This document shows positions 121 to 22,635 of a DNA stretch of 24,000 bases, in pieces. The notes under the pieces were generated by a model, which was not told the origin of the DNA, did no database searches, and worked only from the letters and a program-made list of their open reading frames with translations. The position numbers were made by a program, and so were the translations under genes. This DNA comes from Desulforegulaceae bacterium. GTDB taxonomy: Bacteria > Desulfobacterota > Desulfobacteria > Desulfobacterales > JACKCP01. Location: assembly GCA_034006035.1 (NCBI GenBank), contig JAVETN010000001.1, positions 228,392 to 252,391 of the forward strand, written 5' to 3'. Positions within the stretch are counted from its first letter, which is position 1. Each line of letters starts with the position of its first letter.

Positions 121-2376
121 TTAAAATAAAGAGTTGATAAAACAGCTTGAACTTCCGCTTGATGATTTCATAGGTTTTGGATCTGGGACATTGTAATATT
201 CACTTGTGATGGCTATTCCTCCTTCTGATTCAGCAGAAAAAAGAAGGGAATCGCTTAAGGTGACTTTCAAAACTTTTCCTCTTGAAGGTAATTCTTTTTT
301 TAGAGTTCTATTAAAACTATAGATATTTATTCCTTTATCGGTTCCCGCATAAATAAAATCTTTACTTGCTGAAATTGTATTTACCTTTGTTTTGGCATCA
401 ATTCTATTTGTTTGTATAAGGTCTGTGCTGTTTAATGTATAAATAAGCTTTCCTGCTGCTACAAAAAGAGTTGAATTTTTACAATAAATATCTGTAATTT
501 CATTTTCGGGATTAAATTCTTCTGCTTTGAAAAGAAGGTAAGGGGCTTCAGAATTATCAAGACTTAAACTTTTAAGAGTTTTATCAGAGCCTGTAAAAAG
601 AGTTTTTGAATTTTTATCAATAAATAATGACTGAAATTTTTGGTCCTTTTTAAAAGTTTCTCCAACCGACAAAATTTCAGAATTTTCATATTTATAAATT
701 TCAATTCCTTTTTCAGTCCCAAGATAAATGTATGGTTCATTAACTGCCAATGAAAGAGGCGTTGAGGTAATATCAAATGATTTTTCAATTTTAGGGTCTG
801 ATTCAATATTTCCAAAAAGTAAAATTTTGTTTTCACTTACACCAACAAAACTTTCTGAGAATTTTTTAATGAAAAGAGGGTTATCTTTTTTAATCAATTT
901 AATCAGTTTTAATTGTGTGTCATCAGATAAATCAAAAAATAAAAACCCTGAGTTGCCAGATTTAGAGCTGATTGCGGATAAAATGTTTTTGTTTTTTTCG
1001 ATTTGGGAAAATGAGTAAAAAGGATTTGTTGATTTTACTGTGCTGGGCTCTGAATTGACTGGGACATTAATTTTTGAAATACCCTTTGAAATATCAGAGA
1101 TAAAAACTGAGGCGTTTTCATGTGTTAATGAATCATATTTTAATGAATAAGAATAGCTGAACCCGTTTTTATATTCTGTAGTTTTATAAATATTTACCCC
1201 TTCACCATCTTTGTCTGAAGTTGTGTTTGATATCACTGAGTAGTCGACAATTTGCAAGCCTTTTTCACCATCTGCAATAAAAGCCAATGAGCCGGATTCA
1301 TTTAGATCTAAAGAGTTCCCTGCTAAAATATCCTGGCTTCTTCCTAGATTCTCAGGCCTTTTTTCCCCTTGATTTTCAAGTAAATTCCCTTTATCATCAA
1401 ACACTTTAAACTTAAACAAAGCTGTTTTTTGATTATTCTGGTAGTCATAGGGACTTGTAATAAAAATAAAAATATTCGACTCAATTTCTTTAGCTTTTAT
1501 ATCTTTAGCAAGACTTATTGTGTTAAAATTAACTATTCTTAGATCCCTTTTAGATACTGGTTCAGGTTGGTCTTGAATTTTTTTTAATTCTTCAATTTTT
1601 TCAGGAGAATCAGGAAGAGGAGTGTTAATCGGCAACTGAGTATTTATAAGAGCTGTTTTTTTCTTATCCGATTGTTTGTAGTCTTTTGTTAGATCAAAAA
1701 TTTTTAATCCATAATTACGATCAAGAATTGCTAAATAATCTTTTCCACCAAAGGAGAAAAAATCAATGTCAAAATATCCCCCTGTTGTTAATTCTTTTTC
1801 TGATAAGCCGTTTTGCCTATAACCGCCTAAATATTCGAATTCCAGGTTGTTAGCTCCTTTATCTACTTTAACTATTCTGAAACCATAGTTATAATCTGCA
1901 ATATAAAGATAGTCTCCGTTAAGAGCAAGGCCATGAGCGTCTATTTCAGCTAAGCCCTCCAAGGTCTTTCTTGGTTTACCTTTGAGGAAGCCTGGATCAA
2001 CACCAATGCTTTTAATGTTTTTTATTTCATCTTCGTTAATGTTTTTAATATCTTTGTCGTTGTAATCATAAACAAAAACCCCTGATTTACCCGCAGCTAA
2101 ATATAAGATTTTATTTGTATTATCAGTAATAACAGCGGTAATGGAATTGGAAGGACTTATATCAAAAGAACTTTTGAGGTTTAATTCTTTGTCATAAATT
2201 TTCAATATGGTTCCAAGGCCATGGAAAACATAATTGTCATCTATTGCCACAGCGTCATCTGAAAAATGAGGCCAACTATTAGTGTTTAATAGTTCAAATG
2301 AATGAATGGAAAAACTGGAAAATCCCATGAATAAAACAAGTAAAACTATTTTTTTAAAATTTAATTTGAGCTTCAA
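121..2376 (-). CDS. Secreted beta-propeller surface protein with LVIVD-like repeats and a C-terminal poly-Ser + CFINSLF tail
   Basis: 751-aa ORF with signal peptide MKLKLNFKKIVLLVLFMGFSSFSIHS. The unit Y-x-A-x3-4-G-(L/I/F)-x-I-x-D/Y recurs (YLYIADYNYGFRIVKV, LAILDRNYGLKIFDL, AFIADGEKGLQIVDY, IYLGTEKGIEIYKY, IYAGTDKGINIYSF). The start codon is TTG at 2376..2374, preceded by GAGGGGG. It overlaps the upstream gene by 23 nt. The protein ends SSSGSSSCFINSLF. Confidence 0.85.
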   Translation of the reverse strand: MKLKLNFKKIVLLVLFMGFSSFSIHSFELLNTNSWPHFSDDAVAIDDNYVFHGLGTILKIYDKELNLKSSFDISPSNSITAVITDNTNKILYLAAGKSGVFVYDYNDKDIKNINEDEIKNIKSIGVDPGFLKGKPRKTLEGLAEIDAHGLALNGDYLYIADYNYGFRIVKVDKGANNLEFEYLGGYRQNGLSEKELTTGGYFDIDFFSFGGKDYLAILDRNYGLKIFDLTKDYKQSDKKKTALINTQLPINTPLPDSPEKIEELKKIQDQPEPVSKRDLRIVNFNTISLAKDIKAKEIESNIFIFITSPYDYQNNQKTALFKFKVFDDKGNLLENQGEKRPENLGRSQDILAGNSLDLNESGSLAFIADGEKGLQIVDYSVISNTTSDKDGEGVNIYKTTEYKNGFSYSYSLKYDSLTHENASVFISDISKGISKINVPVNSEPSTVKSTNPFYSFSQIEKNKNILSAISSKSGNSGFLFFDLSDDTQLKLIKLIKKDNPLFIKKFSESFVGVSENKILLFGNIESDPKIEKSFDITSTPLSLAVNEPYIYLGTEKGIEIYKYENSEILSVGETFKKDQKFQSLFIDKNSKTLFTGSDKTLKSLSLDNSEAPYLLFKAEEFNPENEITDIYCKNSTLFVAAGKLIYTLNSTDLIQTNRIDAKTKVNTISASKDFIYAGTDKGINIYSFNRTLKKELPSRGKVLKVTLSDSLLFSAESEGGIAITSEYYNVPDPKPMKSSSGSSSCFINSLF

Positions 2377-3250: not shown

Positions 3251-3760
3251 TTAATCATTGAAAGATGATATTCTTATATTGCCTGAAATTTCGGCTTTAA
3301 ACCCTTCCACAGTGATGCTGCCAAAACTCTTCCCGTCATTCATGAATTTGACACCGTCTTCCCCTTGAATTGTTATTGATCCAATATGGTATCTGTCTAT
3401 TTGGACCAAAGACTTGTCCAGTTCCACATTTATTCCACTGGTCAATCTACCTGTATAAGGATCAATTGAAGTGGTTTGATTTATGGAAACTGGATTGTCG
3501 AGGAAGGTCTTTCCTGAATACACAATTCCTTTAATCAGCAAAGACGCAGGATTCCCGTCGGTGCCGTCGTCATCCCTGAAAATTAAGTTCTCTGCAGTCC
3601 AGTCAATTCCAAGAATATTGTCACTGCTAATTCTAATTCCTGACTGTCCTGTCAAGGTCTTCATTTTTTCAGGAGAAACCGGCGAAAGAGCAATGGCTTG
3701 TCCAGCGGTAAGGATTATTATAGATACCATTATTGTTGCTATGTATGAAAACTTGGTCAT
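3251..3760 (-). CDS. Small secreted GQxG-motif protein (fifth paralogue of the cargo family)
   Basis: The ORF track starts at a TTG at 3799, but ATG 3760..3758 has a perfect AGGAGG 6 nt upstream and yields a clean signal peptide, MTKFSYIATIMVSIIILTAGQAIA. After the signal peptide comes SPEKMKTLTGQSGIRISSDN and later DDDGTDG. Both motifs are shared with the genes at 10746..13886. Confidence 0.8.
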   Translation of the reverse strand: MTKFSYIATIMVSIIILTAGQAIALSPVSPEKMKTLTGQSGIRISSDNILGIDWTAENLIFRDDDGTDGNPASLLIKGIVYSGKTFLDNPVSINQTTSIDPYTGRLTSGINVELDKSLVQIDRYHIGSITIQGEDGVKFMNDGKSFGSITVEGFKAEISGNIRISSFND

Positions 3761-3794
3761 AGCTGACCTCCTATCTGTAAGATCAAATCTCACA

Positions 3795-4110
3795 GGCAAC
3801 CCGGCTAGCCTTAAATTAATAAGGTCCCGCAGCTTTCCGTCCCGGAATTACTTCCGGTTTGGCTAAAGAGGGCGGCCCGGCTGACCATAAATTCTGGCCC
3901 CGTGGCTTTCCGTCCCATGGTCACCCAGTGGTTTGGCTAGTTATTCTGACTCTCTTGGCAACTCGGCTGACCTGAAAAATTCAGGCCCCGTAGCTTTCCG
4001 TCCCGGGATTACTCCCGGTTTGGTTTTTACAAAGTGTACAGGTGGCTAGGCTGACCTTGAGTAAACAAGGTCCCTTGGCTTTCCGTCCCGGAGTTACCTC
4101 CGGTTTGGCT
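3795..4110 (-). repeat. Four tandem copies of a GC-rich structured RNA element in the 5' leader of 3251..3760
   Basis: Units lie at 3795..3864, 3871..3938, 3957..4025 and 4041..4110. The minus-strand consensus is AGCCAAAC-[P1 hairpin with GNRA loop]-GACGGAAAGCY-RYGGG-[P2 hairpin]-CAGCC. P1 variants are CCGGAG-GUAA-CUCCGG, CCGGGA-GUAA-UCCCGG, CCGGAA-GUAA-UUCCGG and CCACUGG-GUGA-CCAUGG, so the stem changes are compensatory. Unit 4 is about 57% G+C by hand count, against AT-rich flanks. Confidence 0.75.
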
Positions 4111-4155
4111 CTGGTATCCTTTGGTTTGAATTTCACCCTTAATCGTTTTTTGCCT

Positions 4156-4364: not shown

Positions 4365-5846
4365 TTATTTAATTATACATTGATATTTAACAAAATCCAA
4401 TCCATTTACACCAAGAGAATGAAATTTGTTTTCAGATTCAAAAATTATTGGAAATTTTGATATAAAATTGTCTATTGGTGTTTTTGTTTCAATACCGTCA
4501 ATATTTAAGATCCATTTTTTATCATCATGGCTTGCACAATAAGCAAGGCGATTTCCTTTGGGACTGAACTTGGGCAGGCCGGTGATAGCCTTGTATTTTC
4601 TTCCCTCATTTTCATTTTTTACCATTACAACGTTTTTTCCATCAAATGCCATATAGGCAATTTCATTTTTTACAGGATTAAATATTGGCTGTTTTACATC
4701 AAAATAGGCTTTGCCTTCTTTTTTATCCCAAACTACAAACCATCCCTTTTGTTTTAAAAAAGCTCTATAAGCGTAGTTTCTACCATCGGTTGAAAACTTA
4801 ATAAGACCTGAAGAGTCGTACTCTTTTTCTTTTTTACCGTTTATCACAATTGTGGGTTTGTCTTTTTTTATTCCCGGATATCCGTATGAATTTCCAGTAT
4901 CAGAATATGCAATAGGACCAAGAGTATCGAATTTGAATTCTTTTTTTCCGTTTACAACCATCTGCCAGTCTTTTCCTGTGTTTGCAGGATAGGAAAGAAT
5001 TGTTCCTTGCGGGTTGTAAAAAGGTTCGCCAATGGTCTTGTAGGGCGGGTGTTCATTAAAGTTTTCTAGCAAAATGAGGTTGTCTTTATCATTTTGAACC
5101 ACACAGGCGAAATTGCCCAATTTGGAAAATTTTAAAAGTATGGCATTTTTATAAGGTTTTGATTCTTTTTCATCAATAAAGACCTGCCAGCCATTGTCCT
5201 TAAAAGCTATGAACCCTAGCTTTGAAGAATCAGGGCTGAAAACAAGTTCATTTATATTTTTGAAAGGCCCATATTTTTTGTCCTGGCAAATTACATATCC
5301 TTTGTGTCTGCCTTCAAAGGCAATATAGGCCAGTCTTTTTCCGTCAGGACTGAAAACAGGGTCATTTTTAAATCCGTCAAAACTTTTGCCTTCTCTTCCA
5401 TTTATTACAACAAATTGTTTGTCACCTTTTTGGGCTATATAGGCAAAGTTTTTACCATCATTACTTGTTACAAGATTGCCTGTACCATCATATTTTTTTT
5501 GTTCCTCCCCATTGATTACTGCAAAATAATTGGAGTTAGAAATTGCTGTAAAAGCAGAGATTCCTGAAAAAGGAGCAAAAAATGGGGTGCCTTTCCCAAG
5601 GCTTTGATAGGGTCCATAGACTTTTGAATTTATCTGGGCAAACATTTTTTTATCTTTTAAAAGGGTTATTCCTAGTTTGTCGTAATCAGGAAAGTTTGAG
5701 GAAATATCAAGAATATTTGATTGCTCTGGAGGTGTTGATAAGCTTATTATTTTTTCATTTATTTCAAGGATTTCGGCATTAATCAGGGGGGAATAAATTA
5801 ATGACAGGGCAAAGACAATGGTTGGAACATTAAATCTGATTTTCAT
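4365..5846 (-). CDS. Periplasmic TolB-like (PD40/WD40-like) beta-propeller repeat protein
   Basis: 493-aa ORF with signal peptide MKIRFNVPTIVFALSLIYSPLINA. A unit of about 45 aa repeats: FSPDGKRLAYIAFEG, FSPDSSKLGFIAFKD, SNDGKNFAYIAQKG, FSTDGRNYAYRAF, FNPVKNEIAYMAF, FSPKGNRLAYCAS. Each is followed by (V/I)INGKE-x-K-x-(Y/F)D. Confidence 0.8.
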   Translation of the reverse strand: MKIRFNVPTIVFALSLIYSPLINAEILEINEKIISLSTPPEQSNILDISSNFPDYDKLGITLLKDKKMFAQINSKVYGPYQSLGKGTPFFAPFSGISAFTAISNSNYFAVINGEEQKKYDGTGNLVTSNDGKNFAYIAQKGDKQFVVINGREGKSFDGFKNDPVFSPDGKRLAYIAFEGRHKGYVICQDKKYGPFKNINELVFSPDSSKLGFIAFKDNGWQVFIDEKESKPYKNAILLKFSKLGNFACVVQNDKDNLILLENFNEHPPYKTIGEPFYNPQGTILSYPANTGKDWQMVVNGKKEFKFDTLGPIAYSDTGNSYGYPGIKKDKPTIVINGKKEKEYDSSGLIKFSTDGRNYAYRAFLKQKGWFVVWDKKEGKAYFDVKQPIFNPVKNEIAYMAFDGKNVVMVKNENEGRKYKAITGLPKFSPKGNRLAYCASHDDKKWILNIDGIETKTPIDNFISKFPIIFESENKFHSLGVNGLDFVKYQCIIK

Positions 5847-7647
5847 GGTTTATCTGATCCTTTTCTACTTTTTTATCTTTTTTAAATGGATTTAATTTTT
5901 TTAAAAATTTTTTTACTTTACCTGCAGCGTGGTGGAGCATTTCCTGCTGATGATGCAGCATTTCCATTTGAACAGAAAGGGGCATGGTAACTCCAAAAAG
6001 TGCAATATAAAGATAGGTTTCCTGCTCATAATCCAGCCCTGCATAGGGATTGTAAACTATTTTGGTAAAATCTGTTGAGTTCATATTGGTGCTTGAGTTG
6101 TTTGGAACTTTAAGTGAATCATTAAACAAATAGCCAAAGCCAAAATCCAGGGTAACATTTTTAGGCAGATGAAGGGAAAATCCAGCAGCATAAAAAGTCA
6201 TATCAGGGAGAAAATAAAGTGCATCAATTTTATCTTTTGGAAGAGATGCAGGTCGAAATTCATAACCGCATCTTAAAGTAAGCCAGTCTTTTGGATAAAC
6301 TTCAAGACCAACTCCCCAATGCCAGGTATCTTCCATTTCCCTTTTAACAATAAGATTATTATCTCCGCCTGTATATCCAAGAAGTTTAGCTATCCTGAAA
6401 AGCTGAATTCTTTGATCAAAAGTAAATTTATCTTCTTTTAAAGCAGCCCAGTTTGACCAGTGGAGATCTGCTGTGATCTGAATTTTTGACCAGGGTTTTA
6501 GTTTTATACCCATATCAATTCTTCTTGGAAAAAGCTGGGTTGCTGTCACTCTTCCAGTTTGAGAAGGCACTGCTTTGTAGGGCATATCAAGCATCCCTGC
6601 TGTTGTCATTGTATATTCTGTGCTTCCGTTCCAGGCAATCTGTCGCTGCCATTGTTCACTATAGGTAAATTTGTATTTTCCTGAAAGTTTTGCTTTTGCC
6701 TGACTCTGGTAAGAAAGGCCAAATCCAAACCAATGGGTTGGTTCCCATAAAAGACCAAGATTTACCGAAGGGGTAAAGTCATCTCTTAGGTCCATTTCCA
6801 TGCTTGTGTTGTGCTCATAGGGACCAAGTCCGCCTCCAAGCCAGGGGGCTGGAAGAGTCAATTGTGAAACAACAGGTATTTCAAGATCTCTTGTTGCATC
6901 ACCAATAACCCTTGTAAGTCCGACAAGCTCGTTTGGGGTTCTTTGATCAAGGGATATTCCCATTGCTGTTTGTCCAAATCCCACTGAAATTCCAAGTGAG
7001 AGTTGGTCTGAGGCTTTATAGCTCAAAGTTGGAGCAGCATAAATAAGATGCTGAAGGTAAAGAGATTTACATCCAAAACGAAGAGGATCCCCTGGATCAT
7101 TATGGGTCATCCCTCCTCCGTAGGGAGCGTAGTTTGTGTATGCAAAAGTCCACTTTGAGTCAGGCTTTCTATGGGATAGTCCAAGGCTCACAGCAGCAAG
7201 AAAATCTATTGGACCAAGAAAAGGGATGTACATTTTGGTTGAGGAGTTTGTGCCTTTTGTATTCCTTAATGGATCAGGGCCTCCATGGTTTGAATCCGGG
7301 TCATTTATATTAGGTTCAGCATTTGGCCCCCATTTGTCGCCCATAAAACCTTTAAAGTCTTTATTTTCTTTAAAGCTCCCTTTTCTTTTAATTATAGGTA
7401 TACCAAAACCGTTGGAAAACATTGCTCCTTCATCAATTTTTGATAATCCTGCAGGATTGAAATGAGCAGACATATGACCAGGAGGAGAGGCTGTGCATGC
7501 ATTTGCAAGACCTAAAGCTCTTGCATCAATTGCAGGGTTTTCATTGAAGGTTGCCAATGTTTCTTTTGATAAAAACAAAACAAGAACAATTGTAATTAAA
7601 AGTTTTTTTATTCTCATGTTTTTTGTTTTTGGGCTAAGGAGTTTCAT
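5830..7647 (-). CDS. FadL/OMPP1/TodX-family outer-membrane transport barrel with an unusual basic/His-rich C-terminal extension
   Basis: 605-aa ORF. Its N-terminal region ARALGLANACTASPPGHMSAHFNPAGLS matches the FadL hatch-domain pattern (G-x-A ... NPAG-L). The body is long and beta-strand-rich. An alternative start is M11 (ATG 7617..7615, giving MRIKKLLITIVLVLFL); neither start has a clear SD. It overlaps the next gene by 17 nt. Confidence 0.8.
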   Translation of the reverse strand: MKLLSPKTKNMRIKKLLITIVLVLFLSKETLATFNENPAIDARALGLANACTASPPGHMSAHFNPAGLSKIDEGAMFSNGFGIPIIKRKGSFKENKDFKGFMGDKWGPNAEPNINDPDSNHGGPDPLRNTKGTNSSTKMYIPFLGPIDFLAAVSLGLSHRKPDSKWTFAYTNYAPYGGGMTHNDPGDPLRFGCKSLYLQHLIYAAPTLSYKASDQLSLGISVGFGQTAMGISLDQRTPNELVGLTRVIGDATRDLEIPVVSQLTLPAPWLGGGLGPYEHNTSMEMDLRDDFTPSVNLGLLWEPTHWFGFGLSYQSQAKAKLSGKYKFTYSEQWQRQIAWNGSTEYTMTTAGMLDMPYKAVPSQTGRVTATQLFPRRIDMGIKLKPWSKIQITADLHWSNWAALKEDKFTFDQRIQLFRIAKLLGYTGGDNNLIVKREMEDTWHWGVGLEVYPKDWLTLRCGYEFRPASLPKDKIDALYFLPDMTFYAAGFSLHLPKNVTLDFGFGYLFNDSLKVPNNSSTNMNSTDFTKIVYNPYAGLDYEQETYLYIALFGVTMPLSVQMEMLHHQQEMLHHAAGKVKKFLKKLNPFKKDKKVEKDQINHENQI

Positions 7648-7661
7648 TTCAAATCTTTAAA

Positions 7662-8807
7662 TTAGAGTTTAAAATCAAAGGGTATGCTTAAACTAAAACT
7701 TACATCTGAGTTACTATTGAAAAGTCCTATATTTAAACTTGTATTAACTGAGCGGGTGCTTGAAATTCTCCAATTTGTGCCTATGGAAAGTGAAGATGAA
7801 TAAGATGTGGGAGAAGTGCTTTTTCCTATGTTCCTCCAATAGTAATCCGTTGAGTAGCTATATGTATACTGAAACCCCACACTAACTGAAACAAGATATG
7901 ATAGGGAATAACCCATCCCAAGATTGGCACTTATTTGGTTTCCCGGACTTACTTTTTCAATATAAATTCCCTGTTCTTTTTGTTCTTTGTCGGTATTGTA
8001 CTTTGCATCGTCCACATCCATATTTTTGTAAAAAGAAATTCCGCCAAAGGCAATAACCGGGTCAATTGATTTGCTGAAATTTGCACCGGCAAAGACAGTG
8101 TAGTATCCATTTCCTATTGCAACCTCATCATCACCGTCCATTTTATAGGGATTGTCTCCAAGGGGGACAATTATCCCTGCATTGAGAATTGTTGTTGGAA
8201 TTCCTTCTCTTGGCTTGAAGGGTTGGTATTGGATGTTAAAGCTTGGGTCTCCTATTCCACTTCCGTTTTTTGAACCTTTTTGACTGTCTATATATTCATA
8301 GGAAAAGGGGATATTTGAAGAAAGGGTGAGGTTTTTTAAAATCGGTACTTTAAATGAAAGAGAATTGGAAAGTTTATGGGAGTTTAAATGCTTTACCATG
8401 GTGCTTGTTCTTCCGTTTTCATCTTCAACTGATTGCAATTGGTCATAGGTGTCTCCTGTATAGCTTATTGAATAGGAAATGTTTAAAAGACCTGGAGTTG
8501 CAAGAGTGTATTCACGGCCGGCAGCATCAAGAATATCTTCGTCTTTTTGTTTTTTTTCTTCATCAGTTTGTTTAAGCTCGCTCATTACTTCCGAAGCTTT
8601 TTGTTTTTTTTCAATCTCAAGTAAGAGCTGTTCAAGCTTTTCCAGTCTTTCTTTTATTTCTGGAGAATTTTTACGATCGATTTCATCTGCATTGAGGTTT
8701 GAATAAACTGGTAAAAGAATAAATAATAAAATTATTAAATAGAAAAAAGGAAGTTTTTTGGTTGCTAATTGAAGTTTTGTAGCCATTTGCCTTTGCTTTC
8801 CAATCAA
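7662..8807 (-). CDS. Outer-membrane beta-barrel with N-terminal coiled coil (FapF-like architecture), paralogue B
   Basis: 381-aa ORF. After the signal peptide comes a heptad-like charged helix (EIKERLEKLEQLLLEIEKKQKA), then AAGREYTL and an amphipathic-strand barrel containing a GIGDP motif; it ends IPFDFKL. The codon at 8807 is TTG. ATG at 8786..8784 (MATKLQLATKK...) is an equally good or better start. Confidence 0.8.
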   Translation of the reverse strand: MIGKQRQMATKLQLATKKLPFFYLIILLFILLPVYSNLNADEIDRKNSPEIKERLEKLEQLLLEIEKKQKASEVMSELKQTDEEKKQKDEDILDAAGREYTLATPGLLNISYSISYTGDTYDQLQSVEDENGRTSTMVKHLNSHKLSNSLSFKVPILKNLTLSSNIPFSYEYIDSQKGSKNGSGIGDPSFNIQYQPFKPREGIPTTILNAGIIVPLGDNPYKMDGDDEVAIGNGYYTVFAGANFSKSIDPVIAFGGISFYKNMDVDDAKYNTDKEQKEQGIYIEKVSPGNQISANLGMGYSLSYLVSVSVGFQYTYSYSTDYYWRNIGKSTSPTSYSSSLSIGTNWRISSTRSVNTSLNIGLFNSNSDVSFSLSIPFDFKL

Positions 8808-9904
8808 AGAATAAAATTAAAAGGTATTCTGAATTTAAAACTAAAATCTTCGTCATTATTTGTGAGCCCAATACCCAGTTCCATATAAATTTTTCTTTTT
8901 TCTGTGATTTGCCAGGCAGTTCCTAGCAAGAAAAGCGAGCTGGTGGTTGAAGAAGAAGAAAGTTTTCCTCTTCCTCTCCAAGTATAATCAGTTGGGAATT
9001 GATAAATAAATTTACATCCAAAGCTTATGGATACATTTTCTGAAATAACATAGCCCATTCCAGCATTAAAACCAGCCTCATCTCCAGGGTTTATTTTTTT
9101 TAAATATTCACCTGTTTCGCCAAGGTAAATTGAGTTTTTAAAATCCAGTCTTGAGTTTTTAAATTTGTATGAGTAAAAAAAGCTTCCATAAACAAGGGTA
9201 GGGGAGACTTTTTTACTCATCCCAAGTCCTAGGTTGAATGTATAAACACCTTCTCCTGTTGGGAATTCTGTTTGGGGGTTTATTTCATAGGGGCTTCTTC
9301 CCATGGGAAAGGTAAAACCAGAACTTATTGTAAACCCGGGTTTGTTGTCTTGTTTTTTGAAGGGCTGGAATAAAATTCCCATATAGGGGTCTCCAAAATC
9401 ATCCATATCAGCAGTTTCCCCCTGAATATCATCATAGATTGATACAAAAGGCAGATCAATTAGAAAGGAAAGATTGTTTTTTAAAGGATATTCAATTGAA
9501 ACAGTATTTACCATTCTGTGAGTTGCTTCACGCTCAAATGAAGTCCCTGATTCTTCTGCTGAACTTATTTGGTCATAGGTTTTTCCATAATATGAAAAAC
9601 TATAATCTACTCCGACTACTCCTTTGGGTCTCAGTGTATATTCACGGCCCGCAGCAGATAAAAGTTTTGAATACTCGTCTTGTTCAGATAAAAAATCTTT
9701 TTTGGTTTTTTCGGTCAGAGTTTTTTTGTTTAGTTCTTCTGCACGTTTTTCAAGCTCTATGATTTGTTTATCAAGAAGGTCTTGGTTGATATCTATTTCA
9801 TCTGCAAAACAGGCAACAAAGGGCAGGGTTAAAAAACACAAGAAATAAAAAACATATAATTTGCTGAATTTATTGGCCTTGATCATTTTTTGTAAGTCTT
9901 CCAT
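8804..9904 (-). CDS. Outer-membrane beta-barrel with N-terminal coiled coil (FapF-like architecture), paralogue A
   Basis: 366-aa ORF, colinear with 7662..8807 (both have AAGREYTL; DFGDPY vs GIGDPS; the ends are RIPFNFIL vs SIPFDFKL). The coiled-coil segment is LLDKQIIELEKRAEELNKK. An alternative start at ATG 9886..9884 (MIKANKFSKLYVF...) forms an ATGA overlap with the C39 stop, suggesting translational coupling. Confidence 0.8.
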   Translation of the reverse strand: MEDLQKMIKANKFSKLYVFYFLCFLTLPFVACFADEIDINQDLLDKQIIELEKRAEELNKKTLTEKTKKDFLSEQDEYSKLLSAAGREYTLRPKGVVGVDYSFSYYGKTYDQISSAEESGTSFEREATHRMVNTVSIEYPLKNNLSFLIDLPFVSIYDDIQGETADMDDFGDPYMGILFQPFKKQDNKPGFTISSGFTFPMGRSPYEINPQTEFPTGEGVYTFNLGLGMSKKVSPTLVYGSFFYSYKFKNSRLDFKNSIYLGETGEYLKKINPGDEAGFNAGMGYVISENVSISFGCKFIYQFPTDYTWRGRGKLSSSSTTSSLFLLGTAWQITEKRKIYMELGIGLTNNDEDFSFKFRIPFNFIL

Positions 9905-10626
9905 GGTCCTGTTTCATCCAGCCTGTAGGTTTCAATTTTATGGGTTGGATCTATTGAGGGAGTCATCAGGGTTTCCTGAAATTCTTTGTCAATATATCTT
10001 AAATCTCTTCTTGAAAGCTTAAGGTTTGAGATTGTTTTTTCTTTATCTGCCCAGATGATGAACATTATATTGTCATCCCAGATTTTTTTAAATTTATCCA
10101 TTGAGTAGCTGGAATTCCCCAGGAAAGGATCAGCAAGAAAAACATGATCTTTATAAATTCCTTTTAAAACAACAAAATGTTTATAATTGTATACCTTGAT
10201 TGGAAGGATACAAGGCCAGTACTCATTGTTATTCAAGTCTTCCAGTTTAGCTTTGTAGCCCCCGCTTTTATAGCCTATGGCGTCGAGAAACTGCTGCATA
10301 TCCCATAAAGAAAAAGCTCTGAGTTGTCTAATCTGCTCTTTATCGCCAAATTCCATGAGACCTCTTATAACTTGTTTTTCGCTTAAGTTTTCGTTGAGAT
10401 AAAAGTTTAAAAGAGTTGCAAGAGCAGCAGAACCGCAGCTGAAATCATGCTCCTGCTTTACTATATGTCTGAAGTTTTCTTCAGTAAAAGGGATGATATC
10501 TTCTCTGATGCGAATTTCACCTTTATAGCCTGAAGAAAAAATAGCAATTTTTTTATCTGCTCCTGCTTCAGGAAAAAAATTTGGGATTAAAGCAATTAAA
10601 ATTGCAAAACCTATGGCAAAGTGCAT
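9883..10626 (-). CDS. Stand-alone exported C39-family cysteine peptidase (FapD/FilB-like), catalytic residues intact
   Basis: 247-aa ORF. Q58-x5-C64-G (VKQEHDFSCGSAALATLLNFY) matches the C39 oxyanion Gln plus the nucleophile Cys. H150 and D166 sit in KHFVVLKGIYKDHVFLADP, the C39 pattern H-f-v-V ... DP. It has a hydrophobic N-terminus (FAIGFAILIALIPNFF) and is not fused to an ABC transporter. Confidence 0.85.
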   Translation of the reverse strand: MHFAIGFAILIALIPNFFPEAGADKKIAIFSSGYKGEIRIREDIIPFTEENFRHIVKQEHDFSCGSAALATLLNFYLNENLSEKQVIRGLMEFGDKEQIRQLRAFSLWDMQQFLDAIGYKSGGYKAKLEDLNNNEYWPCILPIKVYNYKHFVVLKGIYKDHVFLADPFLGNSSYSMDKFKKIWDDNIMFIIWADKEKTISNLKLSRRDLRYIDKEFQETLMTPSIDPTHKIETYRLDETGPWKTYKK

Positions 10627-10745
10627 TTTTTTAATTAATCTTTTTTTAAAGTTTTTATGTTCTCATATCCTAAACACAATTTATCTTTCGGGCAACAAAA
10701 ATCTGCATTGAATCCTTGTTAATACAAAAAGTTTTTTATATAAAT

Positions 10746-11399
10746 TTAAGGCTGATCCCACCAATGGTTTGGAGCAAAAGCGTTTTGAATATTTCCTTCA
10801 CTAAAACCAAGAACAGAATGAATTCCCTGATTTCCTGCCTGGGGATTTAGAATAAGAAAAAAACCCTGTCTTTCTGAACTTGAGTCAAAAGAAAAGTTTT
10901 TGGAGCCCAGGTTTTCTCTTGAATATTCCAGCGGAGGAGAGTTCCCACCTTCAAGAGCTGGGTGAAATGTTCCTGTAAATGAGTTGAAATTACCGGAAAT
11001 GTTTCCATTGAGCATATTGGAACCTATTATAAGTCTTTTAAGGGTTGGATTGGCAGAGTTTAAATCGTCAAAATCCGCTTTTATAATAAGTCCGTCAATT
11101 GTTAAATTTGCAGTATTTGTTCCAATACTTATATTTGTCCAGTTTTGATCCCAGCCGTTTGCACCTTCTTTTGCATAATAGCCAAGCTTGATGGATTCAA
11201 TTTCTGTAAAGGTTTCAATATGGGTATTTAAAAATATTCTTGTTGTTGTGTTAGTGGTGGTAAAATCTGAAAAAGAAATTTGTCCTGTGGTTGTTTTCAT
11301 TTTTTCTTTTGAAAGTTCCTCAAGGGCAAAAGAAAAATTTACAAAAATACTGAAGAAAACAATTAGAATAAAAAGAAAGAATAGTTTAGTTTTAATCAT
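10746..11399 (-). CDS. Small secreted GQxG-motif family protein (divergent member)
   Basis: 217-aa ORF with signal peptide MIKTKLFFLFILIVFFSIFVNFSFA, followed by LEELSKEKMKTTTGQISFSDF. Its ATG forms a 4-nt ATGA overlap with the upstream stop (11396..11399). Confidence 0.8.
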   Translation of the reverse strand: MIKTKLFFLFILIVFFSIFVNFSFALEELSKEKMKTTTGQISFSDFTTTNTTTRIFLNTHIETFTEIESIKLGYYAKEGANGWDQNWTNISIGTNTANLTIDGLIIKADFDDLNSANPTLKRLIIGSNMLNGNISGNFNSFTGTFHPALEGGNSPPLEYSRENLGSKNFSFDSSSERQGFFLILNPQAGNQGIHSVLGFSEGNIQNAFAPNHWWDQP

Positions 11400-12292
11400 A
11401 GATTACCCAAGTTTCTTCCAGGCACTTCAATTGTTAGTCTATGTATATTTATTCCGTCAATTGCAACGGCACCAAAATCTTTATTTCCCAAGTGGATATT
11501 TTCAATTCTTAGAGAGCCAGTGATTGGGGCTGAAACATAAATAACTGGTTCTGTATCAGATCCTGTTGGATCATTGGTTGCTCTTTGTCCTATATCAAAG
11601 GTGGCAGGAGAGTTGGTTTTAAAATTACCTAATTTAAATTTCCCTGAAGGCTGCCAGGTTGAAGGGTTTTCAGGAATGCCTGAAAACGAATCTGCAATAA
11701 ATAGGTTTTGAAATCCAAGCCAGTTTCCATTGGCTTCCGGTCCGTAGTCAAATTTAAATGAATCTACCTTAAGCTGGAATCCTGTCTCAAAATCTATGCC
11801 TGAACCATGACCTCCAAAGTAAAGATTCCATTTTGGAAAACCTGTTCCTATGATCTCCATGCTTCCAATGGCTGATTGGTTAAATTCCAGTTCACCAATT
11901 TTAATAAAGGACTGAACCTCAAAATCATCAGATTCAATTGAAATATAGGGGTTTGGATATCCGCCTGAAGCTGGGTCAGAAGGGCTGGCTATATCAATGA
12001 GGATTTCTCCCATAATTCCGTCATTGTCAAAATCAACATTGCCTGTATTATAAGTGGTTAAGGTTTTTACGTTTTTAAAATTGAGATAACCCGGGGTTGG
12101 TTTATTTAAGTCATCAATTAATTTGATTTGTGAATCTTCATTGTAAAAAACTGCATTGTCAATGGCAATAGAAATACCTGCCTGGGCAGTTTGAGATTTT
12201 AACTCGTTTTCACTCATCAAGGATATTGCGAATAGACTTGAATTTGTCAGGCAGATAAAAATTATAATTGTAGTAAGGTTTTGTAAAAACAT
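11396..12292 (-). CDS. Small secreted GQAG-motif family protein
   Basis: 298-aa ORF with a hydrophobic N-terminus, then MSENELKSQTAQAGISIAIDNAVFY and DFDNDG. GGAAG lies 5 nt upstream of the ATG. Confidence 0.8.
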   Translation of the reverse strand: MFLQNLTTIIIFICLTNSSLFAISLMSENELKSQTAQAGISIAIDNAVFYNEDSQIKLIDDLNKPTPGYLNFKNVKTLTTYNTGNVDFDNDGIMGEILIDIASPSDPASGGYPNPYISIESDDFEVQSFIKIGELEFNQSAIGSMEIIGTGFPKWNLYFGGHGSGIDFETGFQLKVDSFKFDYGPEANGNWLGFQNLFIADSFSGIPENPSTWQPSGKFKLGNFKTNSPATFDIGQRATNDPTGSDTEPVIYVSAPITGSLRIENIHLGNKDFGAVAIDGINIHRLTIEVPGRNLGNL

Positions 12293-12310
12293 AAAGACTT
12301 CCTATTTTCT

Positions 12311-13036
12311 TTATTTGTTTGGACTTACTTCAACAGTGCCTCCAAAAATTACCTGGGTGGCAGGGCCCTTTTCAATTGTAAGAAGAGTCTGGTTGCTGTT
12401 CATTGCCTCAAAATCAGATCCAGTAAAAAAAACTATGCTTTTTGTTGAGTGTCCAGTTGTGGCTTCAATGGAAGGAAGTTTTGAAATAATTCCTCCTTTT
12501 ATAAGGTTTGGTTCCACTGGGAGAATCCTTGAAATCTCTTTGAGGCCTGAATTTATAACACCCATTGCTGTAAGAAGAGGGCAAAAGTCTGTTGTTTCAA
12601 TTATCAGGGGAGAAAAGTTAACTCCTTTTTCTTTTGTTGATTTCTTATTTTCTTCCCTGTGTATTTTATTAATTTCTGAATTATAATTTTTAATTAAATT
12701 TTTATTTAAACTAAGATTCCCGATTTGTTCACCAAAATCTTTTTTAAGTTTGGCATTGGAATATTTTCCAAAATCAGTTACAGGTTTGAAGTATAATCTA
12801 GAACCTTGATCATCTGAAATTATCTTTATTCCTGCTTTTTTAATTGAGCCGTATCCGTCGGTGTCAGTATAGATTATGGTACCATATTTAACTTTTACTA
12901 TAATTTCTTCTAGCTCAATTGCTATTCCAGCCTGGCCTCTTATTTTTTTCAAATCATCCTGGTGAAGTATTTCTTTTGAGAAACAGGGAAAAATAAAAAC
13001 AGAAAAAATAATTAATGTTGCAATTGTTTTTTTCAT
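12311..13036 (-). CDS. Small secreted GQAG-motif family protein (closest paralogue of the major-subunit candidate)
   Basis: 241-aa ORF with signal peptide MKKTIATLIIFSVFIFPCFS, then HQDDLKKIRGQAGIAIELEE and YTDTDGYG. Its C-terminus LLTIEKGPATQVIFGGTVEVSPNK parallels ALITIEKSGTSTMAILGGTLEIAPH of 13113..13886. GGAGA SD. Confidence 0.85.
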   Translation of the reverse strand: MKKTIATLIIFSVFIFPCFSKEILHQDDLKKIRGQAGIAIELEEIIVKVKYGTIIYTDTDGYGSIKKAGIKIISDDQGSRLYFKPVTDFGKYSNAKLKKDFGEQIGNLSLNKNLIKNYNSEINKIHREENKKSTKEKGVNFSPLIIETTDFCPLLTAMGVINSGLKEISRILPVEPNLIKGGIISKLPSIEATTGHSTKSIVFFTGSDFEAMNSNQTLLTIEKGPATQVIFGGTVEVSPNK

Positions 13037-13061: not shown

Positions 13062-13095
13062 AAAAAAACCCCGCCTTTATATTAAAGACGGGGTT
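13062..13095 (-). terminator. Intrinsic terminator immediately after the major-subunit candidate gene
   Basis: Minus strand: AACCCCG-UCUUUA-AUA-UAAAGG-CGGGGUU (arms 13089..13095 and 13067..13073, with inner pairing), followed by a run of U (13062..13068 are A on the plus strand). It sits between 13113..13886 and 12311..13036. Confidence 0.75.
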
Positions 13096-13112: not shown

Positions 13113-13886
13113 TTAATGAGGAGCTATTTCAAGGGTTCCACCTAGGATAGCCATTGTTGATGTACCTGATTTTTCAATTGTGATTAGGGCATGATTTGCG
13201 TTAAAGTGTTCCTGGTCAGCTGTTCCGTATGAATCTGTAACTATACCAGCAGCCGCATCCCAGGTACCGTTTCTTAATTTAATGGTTTTGAAATCTACTG
13301 TTGAATAGGTTTTGATTTCAACTGTAGGAAGACCGATTACAACACCACCAACTGCAAGAGCTGATGCAGGAAGAGTTGCTGCGTCCATTCCAGTTGTATT
13401 GTAGTTCCATCCAGCTGTAAGGGCCTTACATGTTCCAACATCAATTGTTAGTGGAGAAATACCTGTTGTAGTTCCTGCCATCTGGCCATTTGTAGGATCT
13501 AGAGTGCCACCGGCAATAGCTGCTGCAACACCAGCTGATTCGATAATACCAATGTCTTCTGTGTTACCAAATGTGGCTCTTAGTGCATCTACTCCATAAA
13601 TATCTGCATTAAGTATTGCATTTATTGTTATAAGTTTTTGCATTTCTTCTGCCTGGTCTATCATGATACCGGCTGCACCAGTCATTCCGTTTACACCATC
13701 GGTATCCCAGAATGTGCTGTCTGCTAAACTTTTTTGATAAATTACAATACCATCAACTGCAATAGAAACCCCAGCCTGACCTGTTGCAGATCTAAGCTGT
13801 GAATTGTCCATTTTTTCAAGTGCTGATGCTGCCATTGGCATGGTGAGAATTGCTGCTACTGCTAAACCTACGATAAAACGTTTCAT
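13113..13886 (-). CDS. Secreted Ala/Gly/Thr-rich GQAG-motif protein; candidate major structural subunit
   Basis: 257-aa ORF with signal peptide MKRFIVGLAVAAILTMPMAASA, then LEKMDNSQLRSATGQAGVSIAVDGIVIY and FWDTDGVNG. It is first in the block, with a strong SD (AGGAGGAG), its own structured leader and its own terminator. It is visibly more GC-rich than its neighbours. Confidence 0.85.
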   Translation of the reverse strand: MKRFIVGLAVAAILTMPMAASALEKMDNSQLRSATGQAGVSIAVDGIVIYQKSLADSTFWDTDGVNGMTGAAGIMIDQAEEMQKLITINAILNADIYGVDALRATFGNTEDIGIIESAGVAAAIAGGTLDPTNGQMAGTTTGISPLTIDVGTCKALTAGWNYNTTGMDAATLPASALAVGGVVIGLPTVEIKTYSTVDFKTIKLRNGTWDAAAGIVTDSYGTADQEHFNANHALITIEKSGTSTMAILGGTLEIAPH

Positions 13887-13940
13887 AAAAATCTCCTCCT
13901 AGACAGGTTAGTTAAAAAAAGTTTGTTCCAACCTACCAGA

Positions 13941-14028
13941 GGCAGCCTGGCCATCCTTAAAGTCTTTTCAAGTCAGTGCATTAAGGACCCGTTTGGCTTT
14001 CCGACCCCCGATTACCCGAGGTGTGGCT
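13941..14028 (-). ncRNA. Fifth copy of the two-hairpin RNA element, in the 5' leader of 13113..13886
   Basis: Minus strand: AGCCACA-CCUCGG-GUAA-UCGGGG-GUCGGAAAGCC-AAACGGG-UCCUUAA-(19-nt loop)-UUAAGGA-UGGCCAGGCUGCC. The order of elements is the same as in units 3795..4110. P1 contains U-G and G-U pairs that would be C-A and A-C mismatches on the plus strand. Confidence 0.7.
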
Positions 14029-14149
14029 TTTTCTTGGCATTTTTAATTTTGTTTCCGTTTGTTAAATTTAAAGGTTAATTCCTTTTCAGTATATAATCTT
14101 TTTGGCGGAAGGTTATCCTACTGATTTTTATTTAGCTACGGAAACACTC

Positions 14150-14190
14150 TAAATTAAAAAGAACAGTGTTTACTGCTTGAGTGAAAGATT
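14150..14190. repeat. Box A of a duplicated intergenic sequence (core TGTTTACTGCTT at 14167..14178)
   Basis: aaattaaaaagaacagTGTTTACTGCTTgagtgaaag resembles box B. It contains the near-palindrome AACA-G-TGTT. Confidence 0.5.
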
Positions 14191-14471
14191 CTCATAACCA
14201 GGGTTTTGATGTCAATAAAAAAAATAATAAAAAGTGGATTTTTTTTAGTCTTATTTTTAAATATTTGAAATTAATAGGAATAACATTGTTTATATTTCAC
14301 AGATTTTTAGTGTGAAAACTCTTTTTAAGAAATAAATTGGAACTTAGGGGTCATTTTGGAGGGGTGCTGTTAAATTTTTTAGTTTGGAGTTTGGGCTTTT
14401 ATTAGGATAAGTTTCAACTGGATTTGTACAAAAAATTGTTTAGGGAATCTGAGGTTAAAATACAAATAAAT

Positions 14472-19845: not shown

Positions 19846-22635
19846 CTAAAAAAAAGAGTTGATAAAGCAGGAGCTTGATGAATTGTTGCTTTTTGAAGAA
19901 GACTCTTCCTTTGTTTCAGCCTCAAGGTTACTTCCAAGCCCTGAGACAGTTCTTATAATTTTTTTGTTCGGATTAAGATCGTAAATCCCGTTATCTTCAA
20001 TGTTTATAAAAACTTGGTCTTTTGAATGGTTGAAGTAGGCTCCGTTTGTTAAGGGAGTATTGGAGTCAGTCATTTCTTGCCATCCTTTTGCACTATTTTC
20101 CTGATACCATTTCTGATTGTCCAAAGCTCGCTCAGGCAAATGAATTATTAATTGAGCTGCTGTTTCATCATCTTCAAGATGTTTTTCAATATCTAAAAGG
20201 TTATAGAAGATTTTATGGGGCCTGTTTCTTGGATCTGAGCCCGGAGTCTTTATCTTTACTTGTGAAAGACCCTCAATATATTTAATTCCGTAAAAATTGG
20301 ATTTTTCTCCTGATTCAACAGGTATAATTCCCAAAGAGTCAAACTGATCATTTTTTTCCCTGATTATAAAATCAAATATATGTTTTGACTCAGCTTGATC
20401 TATATTTTTTATTTTAAGTATAGCAGTGTATTTTTCATTTCCTTTGACAGGGGGAGCAACAAATTTTGCTTTTTTAGAATTCTTTCTTGAAAGATATACA
20501 GGAGGATTTCCGTTTATCACCTCCCAGTGCCAGGAAATTATTCCTTTGTCATCATTAGATTCAGAAGCGTCGAGAACAAGATTGTCTCCTTCGTAAGCCA
20601 GGTTTGTTTTAAGATTATTTTTTGTCATAAATCCTTTTGCATGGGGAAAAGAAATATTGTTATCAAAAACTTTTGCTATAATAGAGAAAGTGTTTATTGT
20701 GTTTTTGTCTGTAACAAAGATTTCACTTTCACCTTTTAGTTTTCCTGTAACAGTTACTGTTCTTCCAAGAACCGAGGTTGAAGCTATATCCGCCCTTCTT
20801 GAGGAGGTTTTGAAAGGAGGGATTCCACCGTATATTTCAAAAACATCAGTTGAACCTTTTCTTATATAAATCAGATTTTTATCAGGAAACATTTCCTTGA
20901 TAATTATTTTTACCTCATCTTTTCCCTTTGAGTTTCCTGAATCTTTTACGGTAAGTTTTATTAAATGGGTTCCGCTTTTTAAATTATTTAATTTAAAAGA
21001 GTTCCCATTCCCAAGCTTTGTTATTTCTCCGTTAAGGTCTGAACTCCAGAAAAGATTTTCCGGAGGAAGATCTCCGTCTTCCATGTCTATTCCTATTCCA
21101 TGAAAAACAACATCCTCCCCTCTTTCATATTCAGGATAGTCAGGGAAATCAGGTAGTGATTTGTCTGGTTTGAGTATTTTGGCAATAGGAGGCGTATTTC
21201 CGTATATTATTGTTGTTTCAGTGGTTGCTGAGGCACCGTATGAATCTGTGGCTTTTAAGCTTATTGTATGGATTCCAGCACTTAGATTCGGATTGAAAAT
21301 TACTTCTCCAGTTCCTAAATAGCCGTCTCTGCTTGAGTTCCATTCAAGAGCTGTTCCCGGAATCATACCGTCTTCATAATCTTTTGCCTTTCCTGAAAGT
21401 TCAACCAGTTCCTTCTCGTCAAAAACAGTATTGTTTTTAGGAGAAATAATTTCAGGTACAGGGTACTTATTCCCAGTAACAATTGTAATTGAGGTGGAAT
21501 TTTCAAATCCGTCACTATCTGTTGCTTTAAGGGTTATTGTGTGGTTTCCTGGGCTGAGATTTCGTGGTTTAATTTCTGTCCCTGTTCCAATGAACCCGCC
21601 AATATCTGAAAACCATTCAAGCCCGGCTCCTGTTATATAACCGTCCTCTTTGTCTGAAGCATTACCTGAAAAAACAATGGATTCATTTTCATTGAAAATT
21701 TTATTGTTTAAAGGGGAGCTTATTATAGGGAGAGGTCCTTCATTAGTTATTTCAATTGTGATTTGTGTTGGGTCACTCAAAAAACCGCTTGAATCTTTTA
21801 CTGTAAGTGAAATTTTGTGTGTTCCTGGAGAAAGCTTGTCTGTATATACAAGAGGGCCGATTCCAAACTTACCGTCAAGATTTGAAACCCAAATTAATGT
21901 TTCATTTTGGATATCGGGTTCTTCAGCATCTTCTCCCCAGCCCTGAAAAAGGATTGTGTCCTGGGAAGTAAATTCAGAGTTATCATCAGGAGACTTTATT
22001 ATTGCAACTGGTTTTGTGTTTATTACTTCTATAGTAACAGATTCCTGGGTTGTTTCACCGCCCGGGTCTGTTACAGTTAATGTGATTTTGTGGCTTCCCG
22101 GAGAAAGGGTGGAGACTTGAAAGTTTGCCCCGGTTCCAATGCTTCCGTCAATATCTGAAGTCCATTTCAGATACTTGTCTGGCAGACTGGTGTCACCATC
22201 TGAAGCATTTCCCTGAAACGTTATTTTGTTGTTAGCATTATACTTTTCCTCTTTCTCTGGAGAAAGGATGTTTACTGTGGGGGGAGTATTGACTATTGTT
22301 ATTTTTATTTGAGCACTGGCTGTTTCTCCAGCTTCGTTTTTTACAGTAAGTGTAATAGTGTGAGTACCAACGCCAAGGTCAGATCTTGTCAGATTTTGAC
22401 CGTTGCCAAGAGCTCCTTTTTCACTTGAGTTCCAGGTAAGAGAGTTTTCTATAATAGGAATTTCCTGTGCATCTGGGTCATGTGCATTTCCTTCAAAATA
22501 TATAAATTGTCCCAGCTCAAAAGTTTTACTGTCTGCTGGTTTTGTTATTGTTACTATAGGAGGGGCTGTAAAACCAAGACGGGATAAAGCATTTAAAAAA
22601 AACAATATAAATAACAAATACTTAAGTTTATTCAT
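19846..22635 (-). CDS. Large secreted surface protein: six tandem Ig-like repeats, further Ig/PKD-like modules, a C-terminal domain and a poly-Ser + CFINSFF tail
   Basis: 929-aa ORF with signal peptide MNKLKYLLFILFFLNALSRLGFTA. Six units of about 90 aa share F-x-G-x-A-x-D ... L-x-W-x-S-x-x-D-G-x-(L/I/F)-G-x-G ... L-S-x-G-x-H-x-I-T-L-x-(V/A)-x-D. A PKD-like signature is LVLDASESNDDKGIISWHWEV. The protein ends SSSKSNNSSSSCFINSFF. Confidence 0.85.
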   Translation of the reverse strand: MNKLKYLLFILFFLNALSRLGFTAPPIVTITKPADSKTFELGQFIYFEGNAHDPDAQEIPIIENSLTWNSSEKGALGNGQNLTRSDLGVGTHTITLTVKNEAGETASAQIKITIVNTPPTVNILSPEKEEKYNANNKITFQGNASDGDTSLPDKYLKWTSDIDGSIGTGANFQVSTLSPGSHKITLTVTDPGGETTQESVTIEVINTKPVAIIKSPDDNSEFTSQDTILFQGWGEDAEEPDIQNETLIWVSNLDGKFGIGPLVYTDKLSPGTHKISLTVKDSSGFLSDPTQITIEITNEGPLPIISSPLNNKIFNENESIVFSGNASDKEDGYITGAGLEWFSDIGGFIGTGTEIKPRNLSPGNHTITLKATDSDGFENSTSITIVTGNKYPVPEIISPKNNTVFDEKELVELSGKAKDYEDGMIPGTALEWNSSRDGYLGTGEVIFNPNLSAGIHTISLKATDSYGASATTETTIIYGNTPPIAKILKPDKSLPDFPDYPEYERGEDVVFHGIGIDMEDGDLPPENLFWSSDLNGEITKLGNGNSFKLNNLKSGTHLIKLTVKDSGNSKGKDEVKIIIKEMFPDKNLIYIRKGSTDVFEIYGGIPPFKTSSRRADIASTSVLGRTVTVTGKLKGESEIFVTDKNTINTFSIIAKVFDNNISFPHAKGFMTKNNLKTNLAYEGDNLVLDASESNDDKGIISWHWEVINGNPPVYLSRKNSKKAKFVAPPVKGNEKYTAILKIKNIDQAESKHIFDFIIREKNDQFDSLGIIPVESGEKSNFYGIKYIEGLSQVKIKTPGSDPRNRPHKIFYNLLDIEKHLEDDETAAQLIIHLPERALDNQKWYQENSAKGWQEMTDSNTPLTNGAYFNHSKDQVFINIEDNGIYDLNPNKKIIRTVSGLGSNLEAETKEESSSKSNNSSSSCFINSFF

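Follow-up and report, generated by a model that had tools for sequence, protein, structure and literature searches.

A c-di-GMP-I riboswitch precedes the first gene of a Fil/Fap-like operon in a Desulforegulaceae bacterium

Introduction

The 24,000-nt stretch of Desulforegulaceae DNA analyzed here (hereafter the window) carries a hairpin-bearing RNA element as a single copy in front of a gene for a secreted 257-aa protein and as a tandem array in front of a shorter relative. What this element is, what it would sense, in which direction it would act and whether it is dedicated to the gene family that it precedes, as an earlier note on this DNA proposed, are the questions addressed below.

Identity and extent of the element

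The single-copy element is a class I c-di-GMP riboswitch aptamer and a genuine cis-regulatory RNA. It matched Rfam family RF01051 (c-di-GMP-I, GEMM-I) over the full model (positions 1–87 of 87) at 43.9 bits, compared with a gathering score of 35 (E = 9.9e-6 for the window). A covariance model of our own (R1) was built from the four Rfam-confirmed copies in the window, including 14037..13938, and run over the 24 kb with filters off. It returned exactly five sites, with the single copy at 75.1 bits and the array copies at 94.8, 92.7, 91.5 and 47.8 bits; the sixth-ranked site scored 10 bits. By these scores the single copy is real and not a chance resemblance, and the count of one versus four copies given in the earlier note is correct, with one array copy (3947..3874) degenerate. 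The features which that note had described (AGCCA, hairpins, junction and Shine-Dalgarno sequence, SD) are all present on the minus strand where it had placed them, and in the window the element occurs only before GQ(A/S)G (DUF6160) genes (5/5 copies).

The helices formerly named P1 and P2 are the two hairpins of the aptamer. The true outer P1 pairs 14039..14032 with 13940..13934, and the aptamer with this helix included spans 14039..13934 on the minus strand, slightly beyond the limits first given. Coordinates are collected in Table 1. The first hairpin of the single copy contains two wobble pairs (U-G and G-U), the second hairpin includes a C-A pair, and the Rfam score is the lowest among the Rfam-listed copies of the window. 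The overall folding energy of the leader did not stand out against shuffled sequences (z = -0.14) and for that reason was excluded as evidence.

Table 1. Features of the window, with positions counted from its first nucleotide
Feature	Position	Strand	Basis or remark
c-di-GMP-I (GEMM-I) riboswitch aptamer	13938..14037	-	RF01051, 43.9 bits; own model R1, 75.1 bits; covariation, n = 22
Outer helix P1, 5′ strand UGCCA(A)GA	14032..14039	-	duplex prediction; equivalent helix in 15/15 leaders
AGCCA	14028..14024	-	sequence
G, equivalent of Vc2 G20, specificity nucleotide	14027	-	alignment to Rfam consensus and own alignment A3
2-bp helix CC/GG	14026-14025 with 14002-14001	-	part of aptamer
First hairpin, CCUCGG / GUAA loop / UCGGGG	14021..14016 / 14015..14012 / 14011..14006	-	sequence
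Junction GUCGGAAAGCC	14005..13995	-	sequence
A, equivalent of Vc2 A47, intercalates between the two bases of the ligand	14000	-	Rfam alignment; A in 22/22 aptamers
Second hairpin, distal stem UCCUUAA / UUAAGGA, 20-nt terminal loop	13987..13981 / 13960..13954	-	sequence
C, equivalent of Vc2 C92, second ligand-pairing nucleotide	13942	-	also first nucleotide of anti-SD strand
Outer helix P1, 3′ strand UCUGGUA (predicted switching sequence)	13934..13940	-	common to SD-sequestering helix
SD-sequestering hairpin (predicted OFF state)	13895..13942	-	minimum-free-energy folds
SD AGGAGGAG	13893..13900	-	sequence; ATG at 13886
Sigma-70-like promoter candidate, TTGACA-16-GAGAAT	14188..14215	-	consensus match only; leader would be ~300 nt
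Putatively regulated gene, 257-aa secreted DUF6160/FilA-like protein, first of fil-like operon	13113..13886	-	Pfam PF19657 and weak NCBIfam FilA match
Intrinsic terminator, strong, 13-bp stem and T-run, immediately after this gene	13067..13095	-	terminator scan
Rest of fil-like operon	4365..13036	-	Pfam/NCBIfam matches
Carriers of the DUF6160 motif	13113..13886, 12311..13036, 11396..12292, 10746..11399, 3251..3760	-	
Array of four head-to-tail c-di-GMP-I aptamers before short DUF6160 gene (3760..3251)	3792..4119	-	Rfam and own model

Conservation of the fold

The fold was assessed in an alignment of 22 aptamers from the window and 14 related genome loci. Standard pairs filled 96.3% of the pair cells, both-sided changes occurred at 13 of the 22 pairs, and none of 500 shuffles reached the observed pairing or covariation values; when the 3′ partners were slid by 1–3 columns, pairing fell to 22–48%. 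The enlarged second-hairpin loop of the single copy is kept in the closest orthologous loci (L001, L002), and across the single copy and these two loci the first hairpin varies as CCUCGG/UCGGGG, CCUCAG/CUGAGG and CCCCAG/CUGGGG. Such compensatory changes argue for selection on structure, and together with the retained loop they indicate a tolerated extension of the tip with no sign of decay. The single copy is a conserved c-di-GMP-I riboswitch that is probably functional.

The first hairpin is capped by a GUAA tetraloop, and gaps in the Rfam alignment show that the 11-nt tetraloop-receptor segment of the consensus is deleted. GEMM representatives that lack the tetraloop receptor exist, and this feature is not strictly defining. 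Two unpaired junction columns (window positions 14023 and 14004) also co-vary in alignments A3/A5, with A/A in 29 cases, C/C in 6, C/U in 1, C/A in 2 and G/A in 4, the single copy carrying C/U. This pattern suggests a non-canonical contact.

Expression platform

The SD lies 40 nt from the end of the element as the earlier note had delimited it and ~53 nt from the second hairpin. In minimum-free-energy folds it is enclosed in a hairpin whose 5′ arm, CCUCUGGUAGGUUGG (13942..13928), pairs with a 3′ arm at 13911..13895 that includes the GGAGG of the SD. Orthologous leaders share this layout: between a tail GCCUCU-GG and a downstream GGAGG lies a hairpin that is always present but unrelated in sequence. 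The CCUCU of the tail pairs with the GGAGG of the SD in the minimum-energy folds of the window, L001, L002, L004, L005, L006, L008 and L013, and in part in those of L015, L016 and L019; in the Desulfoluna leaders L010, L011 and L020 the simple energy model does not place the SD clearly within the tail helix.

Outer helix P1 was able to form in all 15 leaders by duplex prediction, and its strands co-vary across them (UGCC/GGUA, CGCC/GGCG, UGCCAUAG/CUAUGGUA). The single copy lies in a 5′-UTR where the 3′ strand of P1 coincides in part with the anti-SD strand, an arrangement conserved in the 15 leaders, and the expression platform competes with closure of the aptamer. Because UCUGGUA is common to both helices, the two states are mutually exclusive. 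When the tail of the window leader was forced into P1 in a simple energy model, the cost was 4.7 kcal/mol and the unpaired probability of the SD climbed from 0.18 to 0.45, with values of 0.45–0.61 reached in 10 of the 15 leaders. The terminator scan found no terminator-like site between the single-copy aptamer and the ATG. The sigma-70-like promoter candidate in Table 1 should be read with the count of such sites in the region, which is not above shuffled expectation.

Ligand, direction and level of control

Position 20 of the aptamer goes with selectivity, G with c-di-GMP and A with c-AMP-GMP (PMC9481103). As the single copy has the canonical set G20/A47/C92, this rule predicts c-di-GMP as its ligand. 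It is very unlikely that the aptamer senses another cyclic dinucleotide, for example 3′,3′-c-AMP-GMP, instead. That reading draws on the presence of the same fold in c-AMP-GMP riboswitches, which are found in related deltaproteobacterial lineages (PMC9481103), and on A20 variants in this very gene context (array copy B of the window, L015 and L016), but the nucleotide at 14027 is G and not A, A47 and C92 are canonical, and the specificity nucleotide is likewise G in 12 of 14 orthologous leaders. The GGC and UAU variants (RF03167 and RF03168, defined by G47 or by U20 with U92) were considered and rejected, since A47 and C92 are invariant in the 22 aptamers and U20 is absent from all of them; the higher scores of some loci to these two models are due to other columns.

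The exclusion between P1 and the anti-SD helix, with release of the SD in the energy model, makes a translational ON switch most likely. Without ligand, the tail C92-C-U-C-U-G-G-U-A... would be the 5′ arm of a long hairpin with the GGAGG of the SD in its 3′ arm, and ribosomes would be unable to bind the sequestered SD. With c-di-GMP bound, C92 would touch the ligand, and P1 would close through pairing between UCUGGUA and UGCCA(A)GA of the 5′ flank; closure would take the anti-SD strand away, free the SD and allow the subunit to be translated. High c-di-GMP is a signal of sessile, biofilm life, and under this scheme it would turn synthesis of the presumed fibre subunit on. Ligand binding, the ON direction and the translational level of control are thus what we infer from sequences and modelled folds. 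We consider it quite probable that the leader of the first gene of the Fil/Fap-like operon holds a riboswitch that acts as a ligand-activated translational ON switch.

The same aptamer and the same ON logic could instead operate on transcription, with the tail-SD hairpin and the U-run behind it as a ligand-free terminator and P1 as the anti-terminator, which we regard as possible but unlikely. A run of U5–U6, with at least five U in the 8 nt after the SD helix, is present in the window (AGAUUUUU), L005, L006, L008 and L013, where it adjoins a G+C-rich helix base, CCUCU/GGAGG, and many characterised c-di-GMP-I switches are transcriptional (PMC11218506, PMC9262584). Because of this U-run, termination may contribute to control or even dominate it, and the logic would still be ON. 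Against a terminator stand the empty terminator scan between aptamer and ATG and the shape of the window hairpin, with its two bulges, its loop of 16 nt and a 3-nt gap before the U-run. Moreover, 10 leaders out of 15 lack the U-run, completely so in L015 and L016, although the helix that would occlude the ribosome-binding site is kept in all, and a U-rich spacer between SD and AUG is common anyway in A+T-rich genomes. That the switch is repressed by its ligand, or that the single copy is a decayed, non-functional aptamer, appears highly improbable. OFF-type c-di-GMP-I switches do exist (PMC9262584), and the low Rfam score, the wobble pairs and the enlarged loop could be taken as marks of decay; however, the 3′ strand of P1 is the anti-SD strand, so a ligand-stabilised P1 could only free the SD, and the loop retained in L001 and L002 and the compensatory changes of the first hairpin speak for structural selection. 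Translational activation by c-di-GMP is kept as the preferred reading. The leader would then contain a compact c-di-GMP sensor, probably of the translational ON type, whose ligand-pairing C92 lies within the anti-SD strand, a possible natural design for a biosensor.

Genes behind the aptamer

In a scan of one genome per species, a relative of the 257-aa protein was encoded at 21 loci; one (L007) is cut at the 5′ end of the gene and was left out, so that 20 loci were assessable. Fifteen of these 20, in Desulfobacterales and relatives (hosts include Desulfoluna, Desulfobotulus, Desulfamplus, Desulforapulum and Desulfothermus), have an aptamer whose 3′ end lies 36–51 nt before the start codon of the FilA-like orthologue, and the aptamers of all 15 were confirmed at Rfam gathering scores. 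The leader thus travels with the FilA-like gene. Four loci have a second aptamer before the next DUF6160 paralog, and all 24 aptamers of the window and the orthologous loci precede DUF6160 genes.

The remaining 5 of the 20 assessable loci gave no aptamer, even with filters off, and replacement by another riboswitch class was rejected, Rfam having found none in them. Three (L014, L017 and L021, each at 5750-6000) share another conserved leader of ~200 nt, with the hairpin CC.UCGGC...UCGAAA..GGUUCG.CCG.CGAGGG before the SD; it matched no Rfam family.

To view the aptamer apart from this family, metagenome contigs were scanned for the aptamer core without regard to genes, giving at least 120 loci and 103 first downstream ORFs. 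Proportions are rough, given heuristic ORF calls and a search pattern confined to one aptamer subtype: among the matches listed, DUF6160 was the most frequent single Pfam family (10 of 103 ORFs), and the others included 6 Flp pilins, 5 proteins with a type IV pilin N-methylation motif and 4 response regulators, the remainder being varied. Most copies among the matches listed therefore stand before genes of other families, and the proposal of the earlier note that the element is dedicated to the GQ(A/S)G family has to be given up. The part of its proposal that stands is that the element is a regulatory RNA and not a random repeat; it is a general c-di-GMP-I riboswitch. These neighborhoods are consistent with a c-di-GMP regulon that covers surface structures in general and counts DUF6160 genes among its prominent members. 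The same aptamer subtype was also seen, among the matches listed, before small Cys-rich proteins with the motif C.FYRDSE...G.G.GYCD.D...C.GD..FCEKP and no Pfam assignment (L026, L027, L028, L085, L109, L126 and L140).

The putatively regulated gene and the fil-like operon

The 257-aa protein matched DUF6160 (PF19657) at 32.6 bits (gathering threshold 27) and is 100% identical to a protein of a Desulforegulaceae MAG. A homologue that is 66% identical (P0013) is labelled as coming from the transcriptome of a eukaryote, Chilomastix cuspidata, probably through bacterial contamination. Downstream, the operon encodes three more DUF6160-like paralogs, a FilB/FapD-like C39 peptidase (9883..10626), two FilC/FapF-like outer-membrane barrels, a FadL-like FilD protein and a PD40 propeller protein. 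NCBIfam scores were 24.8 (cut-off 220) for FilA, 192 (475) for FilB, 145 (630) for FilC and 309 (970) for FilD; all are below the equivalog cut-offs, and the operon is for this reason called Fil/Fap-like and not a member. By gene content and profile matches it is related to the fil operon of Acinetobacter, with the same gene set and with proteins that are not equivalogs.

A strong terminator behind the first gene is usual for abundant structural subunits, and the one found here suggests that the first gene is expressed in excess over those downstream. The 257-aa DUF6160 protein is the presumed major subunit of an extracellular fibre, a role assigned to it because its gene stands first, has a switch of its own and is followed by the terminator. 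Structure prediction and structural searches led to no fold assignment. An AlphaFold2 model from an alignment of 22 sequences had low confidence (pLDDT 66.8, pTM 0.41), no PDB sequence relatives were found at E up to 1, and Foldseek against PDB returned nothing meaningful for the model (best E 0.05, TM below 0.2).

After the signal peptide, the DUF6160 proteins share a conserved motif, L-x-x-M/L-x-(D/E)-x-x-L-x(4)-G-Q-(A/S)-G, that resembles a double-glycine leader (carriers in Table 1). With a C39 peptidase encoded in the operon, the motif may be the cleavage site of that enzyme. Two large surface-type proteins are encoded elsewhere in the window on the minus strand, one beta-propeller-like (121..2376) and one with PKD/Ig repeats (19846..22635). 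In both, a Ser-rich stretch leads into CFINS(L/F)F at the very C-terminus, an ending that could be a sorting signal; neither protein matched the sorting-domain models of NCBIfam.

Comparison with known systems

The single copy resembles Vc2, the c-di-GMP-I riboswitch of Vibrio cholerae, in its two hairpins, its GNRA-type tetraloop, the conserved junction ...ACGNAAAGCC... and G20/A47/C92, and resembles the class in its 5′-UTR location and in its association with surface and motility genes. It differs in that the 2-bp helix is CC/GG whereas the consensus has GC/GC, in the absence of the 11-nt tetraloop-receptor segment (CUAA...UAUG) and the presence of a 20-nt second-hairpin loop, and in a platform formed by an SD-sequestering helix that uses C92 itself. 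GEMM-Ib riboswitches for c-AMP-GMP have the same fold and occur in related deltaproteobacterial lineages (Geobacter, Desulfuromonas); they are predicted ON switches and control genes for extracellular appendages and electron transfer (PMC9481103). Their defining A20 is a G in the single copy and was found here only in array copy B, L015 and L016. In Clostridioides difficile, c-di-GMP acts directly on mRNA leaders of cell-surface and virulence factors as well (PMC6200980), but through class II riboswitches with an unrelated fold, in a Gram-positive host and for other surface structures.

Among secretion systems, the closest likeness is to the Fap functional-amyloid system of Pseudomonas (FapD C39 peptidase, FapF outer-membrane channel; PMC5557850) and to fil of Acinetobacter: a periplasmic C39 peptidase, FapF/FilC-like barrels and a FadL-like FilD are shared, and several small secreted subunit-like proteins adjoin the secretion genes. 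Unlike in Fap, the subunits are DUF6160 proteins and not FapB/FapC repeats. No riboswitch for fap or fil was reported in the literature searched. Nor did the literature on DUF6160, the FilA-D pilus and c-di-GMP riboswitches in Desulfobacterales or Fap describe the association, a weak negative given incomplete coverage. For riboswitch biology the single copy is an otherwise expected instance of a well-known class, and its main value is as a functional clue to DUF6160/Fil-like systems. It offers a handle on an uncharacterised family, placing these systems of sulfate-reducing Desulfobacterales under what would be direct c-di-GMP control, and such control argues for biofilm or adhesion fibres.

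The neighboring four-aptamer array

The four-aptamer array is more unusual than the single-copy element. Its periods of 85, 87 and 74 nt are too short for every aptamer to have an expression platform of its own, and the four share a single one. Three copies passed Rfam gathering scores. The copy at 3947..3874 (minus strand), which is marked by a GUGA loop and by a C bulged out of the first hairpin, was unlisted in both Rfam scans (at gathering scores, and over the array with E relaxed to 1) and was recovered by our own covariance model at the lowest of the five scores. Because flanks overlap, cmsearch under-counts tightly packed aptamers, and copies were recounted with a regular expression for the core. 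Among the matches listed, arrays of 3 to 5+ aptamers stand before short DUF6160 genes on nine metagenome contigs (L036, L051, L052, L061, L075, L093, L096, L117 and L122).

Several c-di-GMP-I aptamers in one adhesin or surface-protein leader are also found in Bc3-5, a triple tandem of Bacillus thuringiensis (PMC4759541), and a sharper, more digital response has been proposed for tandem c-di-GMP-I riboswitches (PMC4759541; PMC9481103). A 2022 survey of c-di-GMP-I tandems counted 347 doublets and 12 triplets and mentioned no quadruplets (PMC9481103), in contrast to the arrays of 4 to 5+ aptamers with periods down to 71–87 nt found here and in metagenomes. By analogy with tandem riboswitches (PMC9481103), the suggestion of the earlier note that one versus four copies could set different thresholds for the two transcripts is plausible. 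In the terminal platform of the arrays (window 3760..3800; L036-L122), a hairpin starts with the tail GCCUG(U/A/G) and closes 2–6 nt short of the SD; unlike that of the single copy, this tail is not paired with the SD. The two leaders thus differ in their expression platforms, and copy number is not all that separates them.

The second array aptamer (copy B) has A at the G20 position (window 4024, minus strand). Aptamers with A20 also occur before orthologues (L015:5265-5347 and L016:5871-5954), and their position-20 identity predicts that they sense c-AMP-GMP. Only tentatively, and with the odds against it, do we suggest a two-tier cyclic-dinucleotide code, in which a single ON switch would serve the long FilA-like subunit and an array with one platform, its second aptamer of the c-AMP-GMP type, would serve the short DUF6160 subunit. 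If true, the locus would represent a cooperative architecture of several aptamers, possibly for two ligands, of a kind not described in the c-di-GMP-I class. Among the matches listed, A20 is likewise in second place in two of the metagenomic arrays (L052:4040 and L075:3817).
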